Shown: positions 16,127 through 20,733 of the stretch, in pieces
How the letters are laid out: each line of letters starts with the position of its first letter
Position numbering within the stretch: the stretch's first letter is position 1
Source of the DNA: a virus
Strand: one strand, 5' to 3'
Virus record (IMG/VR): IMGVR_UViG_3300045988_051734
Span: 36,921-100,920 of that record
DNA: 64,000 bases
Notes under the pieces: generated by a model
Seen by the model: only the letters and a program-made list of their open reading frames with translations
What the model was told of the DNA's origin: nothing
Database searches by the model: none
Program-made: the position numbers and the translations under genes

Positions 16127-16772
16127 AACTTAGCTCTACCTTATCAAGTTCTTCTAGTGAAGTAGCACCATAGATAGAGATTTTATACTGCTGCATTTTA
16201 CGATACATTGGATACACAGCCGCAGAAATGGACATAGATAAAGCAACAAGGTTTTCTAATGTCCAAGGTTCACACTCTTCATGTCGAGCGTGCCACTCTA
16301 GAGTAGGAGATTCAATACCAGTCTAGACAGCGATCTGATACTGACTTAAATTAAGACTGATCTCGGATTGATCCTCCATTGTAACTCCATATTCTTTTCC
16401 ATCGTTCCATGTTAATGGATGAGAAGCTAGGTATTCTGCGAATAACATCTTATTCTTCTCTTGTTTAAGCTCTTTGGCTTCATCTAAGCTATAACGATAA
16501 ACGAAACTTTGGGTTTCATTATCGAACTTATATAGATTAGGCGTAACATTTGATGGAACTTCATCAACCTCAATAATGCGTACCGCATTAGGTGAGTTTA
16601 CTGTATCGGCTTGAATTAGGACGTAATGAGTGTCGCAATCCGAGCCAATAACCCCAGTGCCTTCTTCTTCCGAACAGGCAACGACAATGCCATTGGAAGA
16701 TTGTAGTTTAATGTAACGAATATACTCAAGAATATCAACTACAATATTCTCACGATTTACTAATACATACAT
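16107..16772 (-). CDS. Hypothetical protein of about 221 codons, 1 in-frame TAG.
   Basis: Track ORF 16323-16772 ends at TAG. The same frame continues to a TAA at 16107-16109. Its ATG overlaps the RT stop in a TAATG arrangement. Confidence 0.45.
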
Positions 16773-18004
16773 TACTTAATTTCAACTCCTTTGAATAGTG
16801 AACGAAAATAATTATCCATATCTTGGACAATATAGAAGCAAGTACCTTTAGAGATATGTGCTCGCCAACCTTGATAAGATTTTTGAATCTCACTAGTAAG
16901 GATTTTGCCCTAAAGCCAAAGTTGCTACATCTTGCGGAGTTTCCTGCGTTGATGAGCAATTTTCTTGGCAAATGGTATTTGAATTACGCGATTAGTAGTG
17001 GTTAGATAAAAGTTCCATTTAAGATATTTAAACGGAGTTCCATGCACCTTCTCTTTTGGAGGGATGGGCGTTATTCGAGAGATTGTAGTCTTCTTCTAGT
17101 TAAGTGAAAGACCTATCTCTGTTAATTTTTCTTCTATCTTTCTTTTACATTTCGCTAAATATTTACTATCGTTATATAGAAGATATAGATCATCCATATA
17201 GCGACCATAAAACTTGATATGTAATTCTTCTTTAATAAAATGGTCAACTTCATTCAAAGTTAGCAATGCAAATAACTGTGATGTTTGGCTTCCAAGACCA
17301 AGGCTCTTTTCCTCGTATTCATAATACTTGCAGCCCGATCGGAAAGACTGAATATCCGCACGTATATACTTATGTTTTTTGGTAACATAATACTATTTAC
17401 AGGGAACAGGTACTTTATCTTTTGTTAGCTTAAAAGAAAAAGTGTCAATCAAATAGCTGCATAATTCATAGACTTGTGGGTCTTTAATCACTTTTTTAGC
17501 TATCTGTTTTAGAGCTTTATGGTCTATAGAATTGAAATATTTGCGTATATCAATTCTTAAAGCAAAGAAATCATTTTCTAATCCATATGTTCTATGTGCC
17601 TATTGTAAATGTTTCTTTACTCTTGCTAAAGCAAAGTCAATACCTCTATTTTTTAGAGTTGCACAGTTATCATATATAAACTTAGGAGTTAATTCTGGTA
17701 ATAGAGATTGTTCGCATAATGCGTTCTATACCAGTCTGTCGTTGATATGACACGCTCTTATATCTCTTGGTTTGCCACGTTCGATAATTGAGAAACAACT
17801 GAACACAAGCTGCTTGTATTCACAAGCTCGCAGGTCAGCTTCTGTTTGCAAGATTGTTTCTATCCTATTTTCTTCAAAGTTAATTGTACTATCTTTCCAT
17901 CGGACGTTGCGGCAAACTCGATAAGACGAATCATACAGTGCGTCAAAACTACAAAAACGCTCGAAAGAAGTTTTCTACTAATTCAACTTCTCTCTCCTCA
18001 TCAT
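16772..18004 (-). CDS. DGR-type reverse transcriptase of about 410 codons with about 8 in-frame TAG, including two adjacent near the N-terminus.
   Basis: Manual translation of the - strand gives the N-terminal block FDALYDSSYRVCRNVRWK and motif 1 RGKPRDIRACHINDRLV-[TAG]-NAL (canonical DRxVQxAL). It also gives FALRIDIRKYFNSIDH, the LGLGSQTSQLFALLTLNEVDHF block, and the catalytic YMDD in YGRYMDDLYLL. The gene lies immediately downstream of the TR. Confidence 0.8.
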
Positions 18005-18292
18005 GCAGTAATAGTGGCAACTTCGCGAGTTCCACATCTGCAATCGTATTTATTTATCCGTCGCTATGACGAAATAGTCAAGTTCTCCTTAGATGAAAAG
18101 GCATCTACCTATAATATATTATTCAATGTAGTTGTTATGTTCTATTCCTTCCCCTTCTTGGCTCTATAAAACGAGCCAATGCATCCAGAATAAACCATAA
18201 TTAGATGGATAATAATATATTCTGGGGTACTATTCTAGGCGTTGCTCGTCTGCGCTGCTACGCAGCTTGACTTGCAACATGATAGTTCCATC

Positions 18293-18399
18293 TAATCGGG
18301 CGCGAGGTAATTGTTGTTGTTGTAGTTGTTGTTGTTGTTCGCAGATCCATCGTTGTTGACATTGCAAACGTTGCTCGAGTTGTTGTAGTTGCGAGAACG
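18293..18399 (-). repeat. DGR template repeat (TR).
   Basis: A 107-bp copy of the region 19031-19137. The coding (- strand) sense is rich in AAC codons. The two copies differ at 19 positions, every one an adenine in the TR. Confidence 0.85.
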
Positions 18400-18431
18400 A
18401 AAAATACAGAACTTGACATCTTGAAATATCA

Positions 18432-18926
18432 TTATCGACCTCTCCTATAAGTTTTTGGTTTCTAATAGGAGTGTTCATAAATCAATTTATCTCGATTAAT
18501 TCGATCTAATAAGCTATCTTTCATAGCTTTAGTTAATCGAGCTAAATGTTCAAAAGAGCGTCTTTTCTTCTAATTGCTTTGAGCATATTCGAAAATACAA
18601 AGGTCGATTTGACGAAAGATGCTATCGCAATAAGCGATTGCCTAATTCCAATATTTCTTTCGTGCAATTAAAGTTTCCTAGCTATTCAAGTAGATTCCAC
18701 AGGCTTGATAGCAGGCGGCATGAATGCCCTTTCCGCACTTAATAATATCAAAACCGAACGCTTGGAGAGGTTGTCCCTCTCCAAGTAGTCCAGGTTTACG
18801 GATTTGTTTTCCAGTAGCGTCAAACTCTCTAGGACGAGTTAAGACTAAAATGTAACTGACCAATTCACGTGATTTCTGGAGACATTCACGCTTGGATTTA
18901 TGTCGGTCTTTAGATTTTACTGACAA
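18432..18926 (-). CDS. DGR accessory-protein candidate (Avd position); identity unconfirmed. 4 in-frame TAG.
   Basis: Track ORF 18678-18926 ends at TAG. The same frame continues to a TAA at 18432-18434. It sits between the target gene and the TR, as in the canonical target-avd-TR-RT order. Confidence 0.35.
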
Positions 18927-19017
18927 AATATTACCTTCCTTTCTTTCTCACTGAAATATATGAGAAAGTCGGCAGACATTTTAATCTATACTGTCCTACT
19001 TTTGAAAGTTTTAGATA

Positions 19018-20733
19018 TTAGCCAATGACGAAAGCGGGCGCGAGGTAACCGTAGTTGCTGTAGAAGTTGACGTGGTTCGCAGATCCATCGTCGTTGACAA
19101 CGCAAACGTAGCTCGAGTAGTTGTAGTAGCGAGAACGTTCCCAATACCAGCCCGGATTTGTCGTCAACGAACCATTGGCGTTCATAGTATACTTTACTCT
19201 TGTTGTATTAGAAGTATAATAGCTATATGCTGTGTTATAACCCTTGGTACACTCTGAGTTAGAAGTCGTGGAATTGTTCTTTGTCAAGCTAGAATACATG
19301 TCATCAAAACCCATTTCTGTTTCGGAAGGAATCCAGACGGTTTCATTATTATATGTAGCTGTACCATTTTGACCACTAACACAATCTGGACAAGTACCTT
19401 TACTTACCGTTTTAATAGACGATTTAGCAGAACAGTAGTTATAGAAGTTCTAACATTGTGCTCTAGCAGTAGAGCCAATCCAAACAGCATTACTACCGAA
19501 AACAGTAGTATTTGGAAGTAATCCAGCGGTCTGGAAAGTAAGAGTTTTTGAGCCATCTTGATCTGCGCCAATACAAATCATAGTAGCCGCATTAGCACCT
19601 AAAACAGCAGTAGATAAACTAACTAATTTCTTTTTACCAACACAAGCAGCTCTTTCAGAAGAAGAAACATTAGCTACCCAATTCTTCAAACCGGCCCACC
19701 AAGCAGCGTCGCCAGTCGCGGTTTCAGAACCCCAAGACCAATATTGCGCGCTAACGGTAATAGTCTTATTAGATGGAGCAGTATAGTTAGTACCTTGTGC
19801 GACACTAATAGTAATAGTCTGAGAAGCAATAGCAGTAGAACCATTACCTTTAATAGTAAGAATATTGCCATTTAAAGACATGGTTAAACCATTTACGTGA
19901 GTAGGACTATAACTAATAGCACCATCACCAGCGCGACTAATAGTAACAGCTACACCGGAACTATAGTTATTACCATTCAAGGCTACTGTTGTTGGATTTA
20001 CGTTCAAACTACCATTTGCTCTATTGATTGTCCAGTTTACGTTGATCGCGGTGGTCGTTCCGTCCGCCCAGCGGTAGTTGCTTCCTGGTGTAAAGGTAGC
20101 AATATAAGTGCCGGCGTTAGTTGCGGATGTCGTACCGCCAATAGTCATGTAACTAGCGTTGTAGTTATTCCAGTAATTGGCACTACTAACCGACTGCGCG
20201 CTTCCGTTATATGTAAGATTATTCTTCCATGTAGGTTTGGTCACAGATTTACGATTGACTGTGACATTAAAAGTCGCAGTTTGAGTAACTCCATTCTCAG
20301 TGTAGCTTACTGTAACTACCTGGTTTCCAACAGTTGAGAAAGTTGTTGGAGAGCAAGAATAACCAGAAACCGCAGCAGTCTTGGAGTCAGAATAACTAGC
20401 TGTAATAACCATACCAGCTGTTGCTAGAGTATCTCCATACTCATAGGTTGTCTTAGTAGGATTGGTAGTTACAGCGAGCGCGATAAGACGGTGAACAACT
20501 GTAATAGGAACAGTAGTAGTGCAAGTCTCTCCACTTTCTGAGTAAGTGATGGTTACTGATGTAACACCATCGGTTAATACTTCAGGGGATACAGAATATC
20601 CACTGATTTCAGCGGTTGCTAGAACCGCTTGCCCAGTTCCGTAAGACGCAGTAACGATCATTCCGGTGCTATCAAAGTGATCTCCTGCGACATAGCTGAC
20701 TTTATTAGGTTGGGTAGTGACTTCGATCGACAT
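19018..20733 (-). CDS. DGR target protein with N-terminal tandem Ig-like domains and a C-terminal C-type-lectin-like variable domain carrying the VR. 1 in-frame TAG at 19450-19452.
   Basis: Track ORFs 19450-20856 and 19018-19314 are in the same frame and are joined by the TAG. The likely start is MSIEVTT, preceded by GGAGG. T/S/G-rich Ig-like repeats are followed by a WW/Cys-containing C-terminal fold. The VR ends 11 nt before the TAA. Confidence 0.75.
19031..19137 (-). repeat. DGR variable repeat (VR) at the 3' end of the target gene.
   Basis: See TR. The VR encodes RSRYYNYSSYVCVVNDDGSANHVNFYSNYGYLAPA, against the TR-encoded RSRNYNNSSNVCNVNNDGSANNNNNYNNNNYLAPD. The 3' GC-rich end (cctcgcgcccg) is shared with the TR. 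Confidence 0.85.

Follow-up and report, generated by a model that had tools for sequence, protein, structure and literature searches.

In the diversity-generating retroelement (DGR) of Bordetella phage BPP-1, the components are arranged in the order mtd-avd-TR-brt, and cDNA synthesis is primed from Sp A56, starting at TR G117 (PMC6182149). Zeta crAss-like phages have previously been described to carry DGRs whose reverse transcriptases (RTs) are amber-suppressed. Recoding of TAG as glutamine, concentrated in virion genes, has been described for phAss-1 and the 'Caudoviricetes code 15 clade'; the paper describing phAss-1 makes no mention of an RT or a DGR (PMC10607447).

We analysed a 64,000-nt stretch of viral DNA (hereafter the window). 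An earlier note, made from the sequence alone, had read a minus-strand cassette in it as a DGR of the BPP-1 pattern. Our analysis supports this interpretation: the RT, template repeat (TR), variable repeat (VR), accessory ORF and target were all found in the predicted order, and the order and orientation target-accessory-TR-RT are identical to those of BPP-1. The DGR is genuine and complete; apart from the need to read TAG as glutamine in all its genes, it is a standard case of a familiar system. We consider it very probably a functional DGR in the tail-fibre module of a gut phage of ~145 kb that decodes TAG as Gln and is distantly related to phAss-1. The components are as follows:

19018-20733, minus strand: DGR target gene, 571 aa plus TAA stop, tail-fibre protein
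19035-19137, minus strand: VR, 103 nt, coding for the last ~34 variable-domain residues
18432-18926, minus strand: accessory gene in the Avd position, 164 aa, 4 in-frame TAGs
18297-18399, minus strand: TR, 103 nt, non-coding, with 16 AAY codon-equivalents in the VR frame
18004-18296, minus strand: TR-RT spacer of about 290 nt, presumed Sp part of the DGR RNA
16772-18004, minus strand: DGR RT, 404-410 aa, 8 in-frame TAGs

The TR and VR differ only at template adenines

A repeat search identified a direct repeat at 18294-18399 and 19032-19137 (106 nt, 85% identity, offset 738). It far exceeds what chance would produce, and the pair is real. Within this span there are 16 mismatches; 16/16 fall on an A in the minus-strand TR (P ~1e-8 for all of them hitting A by chance), and each one is at codon position 1 or 2. 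The earlier note had counted 19 mismatches between copies of 107 bp, whereas a recount over the same 107-nt coordinates gave 17; every mismatch in the alignment is at a TR adenine with no other kind present, as had been claimed. The two outermost mismatches of the 107-nt span (19034 A>C and 19031 A>T) lie within a flank that is non-homologous and fixed among the relatives compared, reading CTTTCGTCAT in all VRs versus ATTAGATG in all TRs. The mutagenised homology is therefore 103 nt with 15 A-substitutions, slightly shorter than the repeat first described. The sense strand of the TR is rich in AAC codons, also as noted before.

At its 3' end the VR carries a box that is followed by the VR-specific sequence CTTTCGTCATTGG:

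19035-19045, minus strand: A-free GC-rich box CCTCGCGCCCG, with an identical copy in the TR at 18297-18307

By analogy with BPP-1, this box is a candidate IMH-type element. The target stop, TAA, is 14 nt beyond the 103-nt VR; counted from a VR that includes the 4 extra flank bases, the distance is 11 nt, in agreement with the value given earlier for the longer VR. The target gene itself has the 572 codons previously assigned to it when the stop is counted. Its product has Ig-like repeats of the Big_3 type at the N-terminus and a DUF6273 domain of C-type-lectin fold at the C-terminus, and the only in-frame TAG of the gene is at 19450-19452. As in a DGR target, the VR lies within the coding region at the C-terminus of the C-type-lectin fold, and codon positions 1-2 are the variable ones. 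Further VRs, for which a search had been proposed, were absent from the 64-kb window outside 19035-19137.

The RT is most similar to DGR RTs

The RT may start from ATG at 18004 or from TTG at 17986, the latter being supported by a Shine-Dalgarno sequence. It matches RVT_1 (5e-15), with YMDD at 17189-17200. The best match in the PDB is BPP-1 Brt (8ub7_A, E 6e-15), ahead of a group II RT (6e-07) and a retron-type RT (3e-05). In a BLASTP comparison with Brt (E 4e-19), DRLVQ.ALC, GSxTSQLFA and YMDD are common to the two proteins, and the GxxxSQ motif is thus present alongside DRLVQ and YMDD. All motifs named in the earlier note (YMDD, FDALYDSSYRVCRNVRWK and DRLV-(TAG)-NAL) were found. The nearest phage RTs, 25-34% identical, are those of Roseburia phage Shimadzu, Faecalibacterium phages and Vibrio VP585, and these phages carry TR/VR pairs. 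Judged by sequence, the RT adjoining the TR is of the DGR clade. A group II intron or retron RT fits less well: Brt is the closest protein in the PDB, and among the NCBIfam models, those for group II, retron and Drt RTs all give scores far under their cut-offs.

The cassette is read with TAG as glutamine

The RT, accessory and target genes contain 8, 4 and 1 in-frame TAGs, respectively, and are intact only with TAG as a sense codon. Under the standard code (table 11), the RT falls into pieces of at most 56 aa and the target into pieces of 468 aa and 98 aa. Taken at face value, these fragments would make the three genes pseudogenes cut by real TAG stops and the repeat pair a relic in a decaying region; in addition, ARAGORN finds no tRNA, hence no suppressor tRNA(CUA), in the 64-kb window, the part of the ~145-kb genome covered by this search. 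Against such decay, TAG is the sole interrupting codon, with no in-frame TAA or TGA in any of the three genes. Almost every structural gene between 1 and 30 kb shows the same TAG pattern, with 8-17 TAGs in each large one, whereas TAGs are nearly absent from the replication genes at 31-64 kb. With TAG as sense, ORF coverage rises from 74% to 97%. The residue opposite TAG in homologues is Gln in 30% of cases versus a background of 3%, a tenfold enrichment, and it is Gln in 31/31 at the DRLVQ column and in 30/30 at the GxxxSQ column. Use of code 15 is documented for the phAss-1 group, the closest relatives described so far (PMC10607447), and a matching tRNA occurs in only 13% of TAG-recoded gut phage genomes (PMC9610469). 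We consider pseudogenes extremely improbable; on the sequence evidence, the phage reads TAG as Gln (code 15). The dependence of the DGR genes on TAG decoding is absent from the earlier note.

Because of these codons, the RT, accessory and target proteins would be made only while amber suppression operates. Among relatives, the TAG load of the RT gene ranges from 0 to 17; amber gating is therefore not a conserved design feature.

Related phages share the TR but not the VR

The same DGR cassette is present on 40 related viral contigs. Thirteen relatives have an identical TR and 3 more a TR within 1 nt of it; each of these 16 loci, which share one TR, has a VR of its own. Variable sites in the 16 loci occupy 36/38 TR-A positions versus 3/65 non-A positions (singletons). 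Throughout the family, wherever the VR is on the contig, TR/VR differences are almost purely at A. The closest pair of relatives (L013 and L030) differ by 5/600 and 2/600 nt in the flanks and by 0/100 in the TR but by 22/100 in the VR, all at TR-A positions. One TR with 16 different VRs indicates that the element is active in the population, and completely different VRs in near-identical relatives indicate that the lineage was active very recently. Mutagenic homing is ongoing across the related contigs, with the VR varying and the TR constant; this genome contributes one VR.

That single VR is also what would be seen if the DGR had once diversified its VR and were now inactive in this genome, the TR/VR differences being a frozen record. 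Decay does occur in a few relatives: the VR of L006 carries a deletion along with changes at non-A positions, the TR of L032 has lost 15 nt, and in L001 two of the TR/VR differences are not at A. In the window, by contrast, every TR/VR mismatch is at an A; with TAG read as Gln, the ORFs of the RT, accessory protein and target are uninterrupted, and the catalytic motifs are kept; and the motifs and structures of the spacer are conserved. Together with the different VRs of near-identical relatives, these features make a fossil very unlikely, and we retain a functional DGR as the explanation.

The spacer is structured and conserved

The spacer has a fold z-score of -3.2. Next to the TR, at 18288-18297, it contains the invariant motif GAUUAGAUGG, which has two mutually exclusive complementary partners at 18199-18209 and 18087-18097; 95% and 99% of cells were paired in the respective analyses. 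Hairpins with covariation lie at 18241-18278 and at 18004-18042, the second adjoining the ribosome-binding site of the RT gene. Compensatory changes were found in 21/41 consensus pairs of the spacer and affect two hairpins. A BPP-1-type hairpin 3' of the VR is not conserved across the family.

Two further elements may delimit transcription:

18978-19006, minus strand: sigma-70-like match TTCAAA-17 nt-TAAAAT, lying after the target stop and before the accessory gene
15632-15673, no strand assigned: bidirectional hairpin resembling an intrinsic terminator, with T-runs flanking an 18-bp stem

The sequence of the first, GGGACAGTA.AGATTAAAAT, is kept across family subgroups, and it is a candidate promoter of the accessory-TR-RT transcript. 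The second stands between the tail genes on the plus strand and the minus-strand block. A bidirectional terminator at 15.64 kb had thus been placed correctly, but it does not abut the RT gene, as two minus-strand genes stand between. As to a divergent promoter at 20.86-21.04 kb, the proposal derives from gene orientation only; sigma-70-like matches in the region are at chance level (20 vs 19.2 expected).

The accessory protein resembles Avd in fold class but not in sequence

The accessory gene starts with TTG in this genome and with ATG in relatives. Its product has a pI of 9.9 vs 9.55 for Avd, and the AF2 model (pLDDT 88.6) predicts four long helices forming a four-helix bundle with a beta-hairpin insertion. 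A small basic protein with a predicted four-helix bundle, encoded between target and TR, is what would be expected of an Avd. At the level of sequence, the homology of this protein to Avd cannot be shown. None of the 8/8 accessory family members examined matched Pfam bAvd (PF22296) or 23S_rRNA_IVP (PF05635) at E<=10, while the positive controls scored 7e-36 (BPP-1 Avd) and about 1e-29 to 1e-33 (the accessory proteins of the outgroup DGRs L042 and L044, which have a canonical bAvd). In hhalign, the probability of a match to BPP-1 Avd was 0.6%, and sequence and profile searches of the PDB returned nothing. The small ORF singled out earlier as an Avd-type accessory is therefore in the Avd position but, by these searches, lacks detectable Avd homology.

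The protein might then be an analogue unrelated to Avd that replaced it in a working DGR and may bind RT or RNA differently. In line with this, solved Avd structures are missing from the top 50 Foldseek matches of the model; the family is isolated, with 31 matches among 1.84 billion representatives; the protein has 164 aa with the beta-hairpin insertion vs 128 aa for Avd; and the outgroup DGRs keep the canonical bAvd. On the other hand, position, four-helix-bundle class and strong basic charge are all common to the accessory protein and Avd. The best natural fold match, 2rld, is weak (Foldseek E 0.04-0.18), but its annotation, 'S23 ribosomal protein family', corresponds by name to 23S_rRNA_IVP, a family that canonical Avds also match weakly. 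A distant member, P0207, gives faint full-length matches to bAvd (0.016) and 23S_rRNA_IVP (0.028); this faint, transitive connection is the only sequence link of the family to Avd. The accessory profile is also weakly similar to the author-annotated 'Avd' of Roseburia phage Shimadzu. On balance, replacement by an analogue seems possible but rather improbable.

The observations on the accessory protein, RT and spacer may be combined. The accessory protein, the Shimadzu 'Avd' and the L043 protein could form a distinct lineage of DGR cofactors missed by current HMMs, here serving an RT with a finger-domain insertion and an unusually long spacer RNA of ~290 nt; the two alternative partners of the TR-flank motif could constitute a conformational switch for priming; and amber suppression of the three genes would confine mutagenic homing to the late, recoded phase. 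We offer this reading as a whole only tentatively, and doubt that all of it holds.

The DGR lies in a five-gene fibre module

Two genes follow the RT gene on the minus strand:

16107-16772, minus strand: DUF4376 protein gene, 221 aa
15677-16126, minus strand: membrane protein gene (PF06541), 149 aa, at the end of the minus-strand block

The DUF4376 gene adjoins the RT gene in 40/40 family loci, and in most of the relatives sampled its ATG start and the stop of the RT gene overlap as TAATG. The DUF4376 domain was detected in 7/7 homologues (best 7e-07), the 221-aa protein falls in PHROG 'tail fiber protein' families, and a second DUF4376 gene comes after the neighbouring fibre-like gene. Most likely, this protein is a fibre-associated partner of the target and not a DGR enzyme. 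The PF06541 gene, missing at the divergent loci L028 and L034-L038, does not encode a DGR component. The cassette had been taken as an inserted module oriented opposite to the structural genes; the opposite orientation stands, but the block is a five-gene fibre module and not a DGR alone.

A model for diversification

We propose that a transcript from the putative promoter, comprising the accessory gene, the TR and the structured spacer, would be the DGR RNA. The RT, probably assisted by the accessory protein with its basic four-helix bundle, would copy the TR into cDNA, with priming presumably in the spacer, and would misincorporate opposite template adenines during synthesis. The cDNA would then take the place of the VR (103 nt) with which the fibre gene closes at its 3' end; by analogy, the A-free GC box that TR and VR share and the flank specific to the VR may guide homing. 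On the ligand-binding face of the C-type-lectin-fold domain, up to 16 AAY-encoded positions would thereby be randomised, which may vary host-receptor specificity if the fibre binds the receptor. Amber suppression in recoded phages is thought to belong to the late phase, and production of the proteins would probably be confined to that phase.

Comparison with known systems

In both the present DGR and that of BPP-1, the VR occupies the very 3' end of a gene for a protein with a C-type-lectin fold, receptor-binding in BPP-1 and presumably so here, the TR is AAC-rich and differs from the VR at adenines only, TR and VR share an A-free GC-rich 3' end followed by divergent flanks, and a non-coding spacer separates TR and RT. 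Brt and the present RT can be aligned along ~300 residues and have the same signature motifs, but the RT is only 24% identical to Brt, with an insertion of ~45 residues and a C-terminus ~80 residues longer. The spacer measures ~290 nt versus 144 nt from TR to brt in BPP-1, and a gap of 32 nt separates the accessory gene from the TR, which abut in BPP-1. Unlike in BPP-1, the accessory protein has no detectable homology to Avd, the search for a conserved hairpin beyond the VR found none, the target combines Ig-like repeats with a DUF6273-type C-type-lectin domain instead of the Mtd architecture, and the target, accessory and RT genes all require TAG=Gln decoding.

By tail protein, phAss-1 is the nearest described phage (35% identity over 100% length) and is similar in genome size; its equivalent region has no minus-strand block, and the relationship is distant. 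A megablast search against the phage collection gave no match.

The Zeta crAss-like phages are likewise gut phages that diversify C-type-lectin-tipped tail-fibre proteins, with suppressed TAGs in RT genes and the GxxxSQ motif, and most of their DGRs, as here, have no recognisable Avd. Unlike them, the present lineage is not in Crassvirales: the phage has a tape-measure-like protein and a DnaE-type polymerase, and its tail proteins are nearest to those of phAss-1 and of ~140-kb Enterococcus phages.

The nearest catalogued RTs (25-34% identity over >90% of the length) are those of Firmicutes gut phages, namely Roseburia phage Shimadzu and Faecalibacterium phages Toutatis, Lelie and Brigit. These phages differ in being of temperate size (45-60 kb), in using the standard code and in their low RT identity, and their accessory proteins are shorter (136 aa). 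The Shimadzu 'Avd' likewise has no Pfam bAvd match and weakly resembles the accessory profile, and the gene order in Shimadzu (tail fibre, 'Avd', RT) resembles that of the present cassette.

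An adenine-specific repeat pair at the 3' end of a fibre gene

Employing a repeat search, we found a direct repeat of 106 nt (18294-18399 and 19032-19137; 85% identity, offset 738), the longest in the region, and pairwise alignment showed that the homology begins and ends abruptly. The 19.0-kb copy lies at the 3' end of a 571-aa fibre gene (19018-20733, minus strand) with Big_3 Ig-like repeats and a DUF6273 C-type lectin (CLec) domain. On the minus (coding) strand, the two copies differ at 16 positions over the 106 nt, and at 17 over the 107 nt considered in the earlier note. 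The repeat pair reported there is real and its differences are indeed confined to adenines of one copy, but they number 17, not 19. Every mismatch is an A in the 18.3-kb copy (the template repeat, TR) and falls at codon position 1 or 2 in the frame of the 19.0-kb copy (the variable repeat, VR). With A at 39 of the 106 positions, the probability that 16 random mismatches would all fall on A is ~1e-8.

Comparison with relatives refined the boundaries of the repeats. A common A-free box, CCTCGCGCC(C/G)G, is followed by CTTTCGTCAT in every VR and by ATTAGATG in every TR. Because these flanks are constant, the apparent A mismatches at 19034 and 19031 belong to fixed flank, where the agreement of two T's is coincidental. 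The homology subject to mutagenesis spans 103 nt (TR 18297-18399, VR 19035-19137) and contains 15 A-substitutions. Even with any base permitted at TR adenines, we found no additional copy of the TR resembling a VR in the 64-kb window, and the exact TR-flank pattern had no match in the viral contigs searched.

The proposed C-type-lectin fold of the target was supported, in part by the FGE-like PvdO. In the homologue P0135 (412 aa; from a contig of 135,677 nt), a VR-type sequence ending in LAPAFVIG is followed by ~130 more residues; in this protein family, the CLec domain can therefore be internal.

The other features considered here are as follows.

16772-18004, minus strand: reverse transcriptase (RT; Pfam RVT_1, 5e-15)
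18004-18296, minus strand: TR-RT spacer (fold and covariation)
18432-18926, minus strand: accessory ORF, 164 aa (start codon TTG in the window, ATG in relatives)
21044-22297, plus strand: fibre-like gene, no family match, divergently transcribed relative to the target
22312-23004, plus strand: 230-aa DUF4376 protein (2e-08), following the fibre-like gene

The reverse transcriptase resembles Brt of phage BPP-1

The diversity-generating retroelement (DGR) of Bordetella phage BPP-1 (mtd-avd-TR-brt) is the prototype of such elements. The top solved-structure match of the window RT was 8ub7_A (6e-15), followed by a group II intron RT (6e-07) and retron-type RTs (3e-05). We identified 8ub7_A as BPP-1 Brt, since the translation of BPP-1 brt yielded the same alignment. 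By BLASTP, the RT matched Brt with an E value of 4e-19 (24% identity over 303 residues), and the two share the motifs DRLVQ.ALC, GSxTSQLFA and YMDD. Compared to Brt, the window RT has an insertion of ~45 residues (residues 183-232) and a longer C-terminus. The RT scored far under the cut-offs of the NCBIfam group II, retron and Drt models. Its closest catalogued relatives, at 25-34% identity, are RTs of Roseburia phage Shimadzu, several Faecalibacterium phages, Vibrio phage VP585 and others.

TAG is read as a sense codon in the cassette

Under table 11, the RT is a series of ORFs of at most 56 aa and the target falls into two pieces (468 and 98 aa). Three-frame translation showed that TAG is the sole interrupting codon; it occurs 8 times in the RT, 4 times in the accessory ORF and once in the target, and all three genes stop at TAA. 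Interruption by TAG characterises the entire genome: when TAG is taken as sense, the coverage of the window by ORFs of at least 100 aa rises from 74% to 97%. In an RT alignment of the window and 44 loci, Gln made up 30% of the residues opposite TAG (background 3%) and was the sole residue at two invariant columns (the Q of DRLVQ, 31/31; the Q of GxxxSQ, 30/30). TAG is thus decoded as Gln (code 15). Standard-code gene calling breaks up the RT and accessory genes at their TAGs, and DGR surveys that need intact RT or Avd (the BPP-1 accessory protein) calls would probably miss such elements.

No tRNA gene was found in the 64-kb window, and a gathering search detected no Rfam family in it. A survey found a suppressor tRNA in only 13% of TAG-recoded gut phage genomes (PMC9610469); its absence from the window is not unusual.

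The TAG-dense left half (1-30000) consists of plus-strand structural genes, with 8-17 in-frame TAGs per large gene, and the DGR block. The TAG-poor right half (31000-64000) contains minus-strand NrdD, DnaE-type polymerase, RecJ, GyrA/GyrB-like and PhoH-like genes, and its replication genes have almost no TAG. The same early/late recoding split has been described in other phages with code 15. Among relatives, the RT carries between 0 and 17 TAGs, so the dependence on amber decoding looks like a by-product of general late-gene recoding rather than a dedicated control.

Three ORFs in the replication half are TAG-rich: 49562-50473, 38107-38856 and 57242-57586, all on the minus strand. They encode a 303-aa protein with a GIY-YIG endonuclease domain (13 TAGs), a 249-aa Cys-rich protein (4 TAGs) and a 114-aa membrane protein (5 TAGs). 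Possibly, the gene for the GIY-YIG protein is a mobile homing-endonuclease gene whose history or expression timing is its own.

Variable repeats diversify among related genomes

A search for related loci yielded 44, of which 40 carry the same cassette (RT identity 58-96%; contigs up to 148 kb). Six of the 40 end at a contig edge before the VR, and the VR of another, L006, has an indel; in the remaining loci, TR and VR differ almost exclusively at TR adenines. An identical 103-nt TR is present in 13 loci and a 1-nt variant in 3 more, and these 16 loci have 16 distinct VRs. Among the 16 VRs, 36 of the 38 TR-A positions are polymorphic, compared to 3 singleton changes at the 65 non-A positions. 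Average divergence across the 300 nt upstream of the VR is 18%; because the 16 genomes are thus not clonal, we limited further comparison to the closest pairs. Loci L013 and L030 differ at 5/600 nt upstream, 2/600 downstream and 0/100 in the TR, but at 22/100 in the VR, and all 22 VR differences lie at TR-A positions. These sequence comparisons provide strong evidence for ongoing mutagenic homing in the lineage, at the population level rather than as direct evidence for the window genome.

Individual repeats show further features. The VR of L001 (IMGVR_UViG_3300045988_055134, 96% identical; VR 4878-4980) has an in-frame TAG (TR AGT AAT, VR ACT TAG), which needs two non-A changes (G>C and T>G) beside the mutated A. 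Such a codon can be tolerated only where TAG is sense, as it is in that phage. In L006 (~4890-4984), the VR has an internal deletion of ~21 nt and non-A changes; in L032 (5630-5700), the TR lacks 15 nt that its VR keeps. Both repeat pairs are probably decaying.

The accessory protein is a probable, highly divergent Avd homologue

Neither the accessory ORF by itself nor its family profile matched anything in Pfam, NCBIfam, PHROGs or PDB. The Pfam bAvd-like family PF22296 detects genuine Avd at 7e-36 and the accessory proteins of two outgroup DGRs (L042 and L044) at ~1e-29 to 1e-33, whereas none of 8 members of the window family matched it, even at E<=10. Aligned with BPP-1 Avd by hhalign, the family profile gave a probability of 0.6%. 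The family is also isolated: an exhaustive profile search of 1.84 billion representatives returned only 31 matches.

The structure model, made for a database homologue 74% identical to the accessory protein, is a four-helix bundle with a short beta-hairpin insertion (pLDDT 88.6). The accessory protein is strongly basic (pI 9.9; Avd, 9.55). The top natural fold match of the model, though weak (E 0.04-0.18), was 2rld, 'S23 ribosomal protein family'. By name, 2rld belongs to the 23S_rRNA_IVP family, which canonical Avds also match weakly; a literature search on bAvd and 2RLD returned only unrelated papers. P0207, a distant match of the family, shows faint full-length similarity to bAvd (0.016) and 23S_rRNA_IVP (0.028). 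In addition, weak resemblance to the family profile was seen in the accessory protein of L043 (E 6e-05) and in the 'Avd' annotated by its authors in phage Shimadzu (E 5e-04); Pfam bAvd detects neither. Its position, fold class and charge lead us to read the accessory protein of the window as an Avd-like cofactor and, probably, as a very divergent homologue of Avd.

The TR-RT spacer is structured

The fold of the TR plus spacer beat all 100 shuffles (z = -3.2). In an alignment of spacers from ten diverse family members, compensatory changes occurred at 21 of 41 consensus pairs and were concentrated in two hairpins, one just 3' of the TR (18241-18278) and one abutting the RT ribosome-binding site (18004-18042). 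Directly 3' of the TR, GAUUAGAUGG does not vary at RT identities down to 58%. Two conserved segments further downstream are complementary to it, one at 18199-18209 (95% of cells paired) and the other at 18087-18097 (99%). The two pairings are mutually exclusive, and covariation does not discriminate between them, as both are mostly invariant. In BPP-1, cDNA synthesis starts at TR G117 and is primed by Sp A56, with the spacer folded back onto the TR 3' end (PMC6182149); by analogy, GAUUAGAUGG probably sets the priming site. That the accessory protein represents a distinct cofactor lineage and the spacer is also switchable is, taken jointly, rather unlikely in our view.

A sigma-70-like match (TTCAAA-17 nt-TAAAAT, 18978-19006) precedes the accessory gene, is kept in sequence across subgroups and is a candidate DGR-RNA promoter; matches resembling promoters occur at chance frequency across the whole region. 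We do not claim a BPP-1-type hairpin downstream of the VR: there is an AT-rich 9-bp hairpin at ~18945-18970, but the region folds no better than shuffles (z = -0.26) and the hairpin is not present in other subgroups. In the 310-nt divergent intergenic region, a 15-nt motif, AAGT(AC/GT)ACTTTTTTG, occurs at 20849-20863 and 21009-21023, with 10-nt cores that are reverse complements. As a promoter or operator this palindromic motif was rejected as not significant (3 matches, 1.0 expected; equalled in 8 of 100 shuffles).

The cassette is part of a five-gene block

The minus-strand block exceeds the DGR, with two more genes after the RT. The first encodes 221 aa; its ATG overlaps the RT stop codon (TAATG), as in most sampled relatives, and it adjoins the RT in 40/40 family loci. 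The divergent loci L034-L038 also keep it by the RT, although other flanking genes were not found at the same position. Such coupling and conservation might suggest a new DGR factor, a reading that we rejected as the primary one. DUF4376 was detected in 7/7 homologues tested (best 7e-07), several match 'tail fiber protein' PHROGs, and a second DUF4376 gene follows the neighbouring fibre-like gene; the 221-aa protein is therefore best read as the fibre partner of the target. Most simply, there are two units of a fibre plus a DUF4376 partner, with the accessory gene, TR and RT lying between both genes of one. Most relatives have replaced the fibre-like gene at 21044-22297 or conserve it poorly; this suggests that a receptor-binding module beside the DGR-diversified one can be swapped. 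The second extra gene encodes a 149-aa membrane protein (PF06541). The bidirectional terminator that had been taken to bracket the cassette exists (15632-15673, 18-bp stem) but closes the five-gene block, not the DGR alone.

Among the proteins encoded in the window are NrdD, RecJ, a DnaE-type polymerase and a tape-measure-like protein. The tail protein has its nearest counterparts in phAss-1 (35% identity, full length) and ~140-kb Enterococcus phages; given these nearest relatives, the tape-measure-like protein and the polymerase, a crAss-like host phage was rejected. phAss-1 has been described as reading TAG as Gln, its predicted hosts are Clostridia, and the paper describing it makes no mention of an RT or DGR (PMC10607447). 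The equivalent region of phAss-1 is without the minus-strand block, which is consistent with, and weakly supports, the idea in the earlier note that the cassette is an inserted module. Megablast of the cassette against phages found nothing.

Comparison with known DGRs

The DGR finding is correct and well supported, and leaves the understanding of DGRs unchanged. Prevalent gut phages often carry DGRs (21 of 54 genomes; PMC9610469), and Zeta crAss-like phages have DGRs with amber-suppressed RT genes and mostly unrecognisable Avds (PMC12386605); the main preprint surveying recoded phages makes no mention of retroelements. Our analysis adds an evidently active DGR to large TAG-recoded gut phages distantly related to phAss-1, for which none is described in the literature searched. 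The 40 related contigs form a natural experiment, with one TR and many VRs, from which the lectin-fold positions tolerating variation could be mapped. The Pfam-invisible accessory family and the conserved spacer motifs would be useful for studying variation of the DGR RNP beyond BPP-1.

In mechanism and architecture, the element is a canonical BPP-1-type DGR. Unlike that of BPP-1, it needs TAG=Gln decoding in all three genes, its accessory protein escapes current Avd models, its spacer is longer and structured, and its target carries a DUF6273-type CLec domain behind Ig-like repeats.
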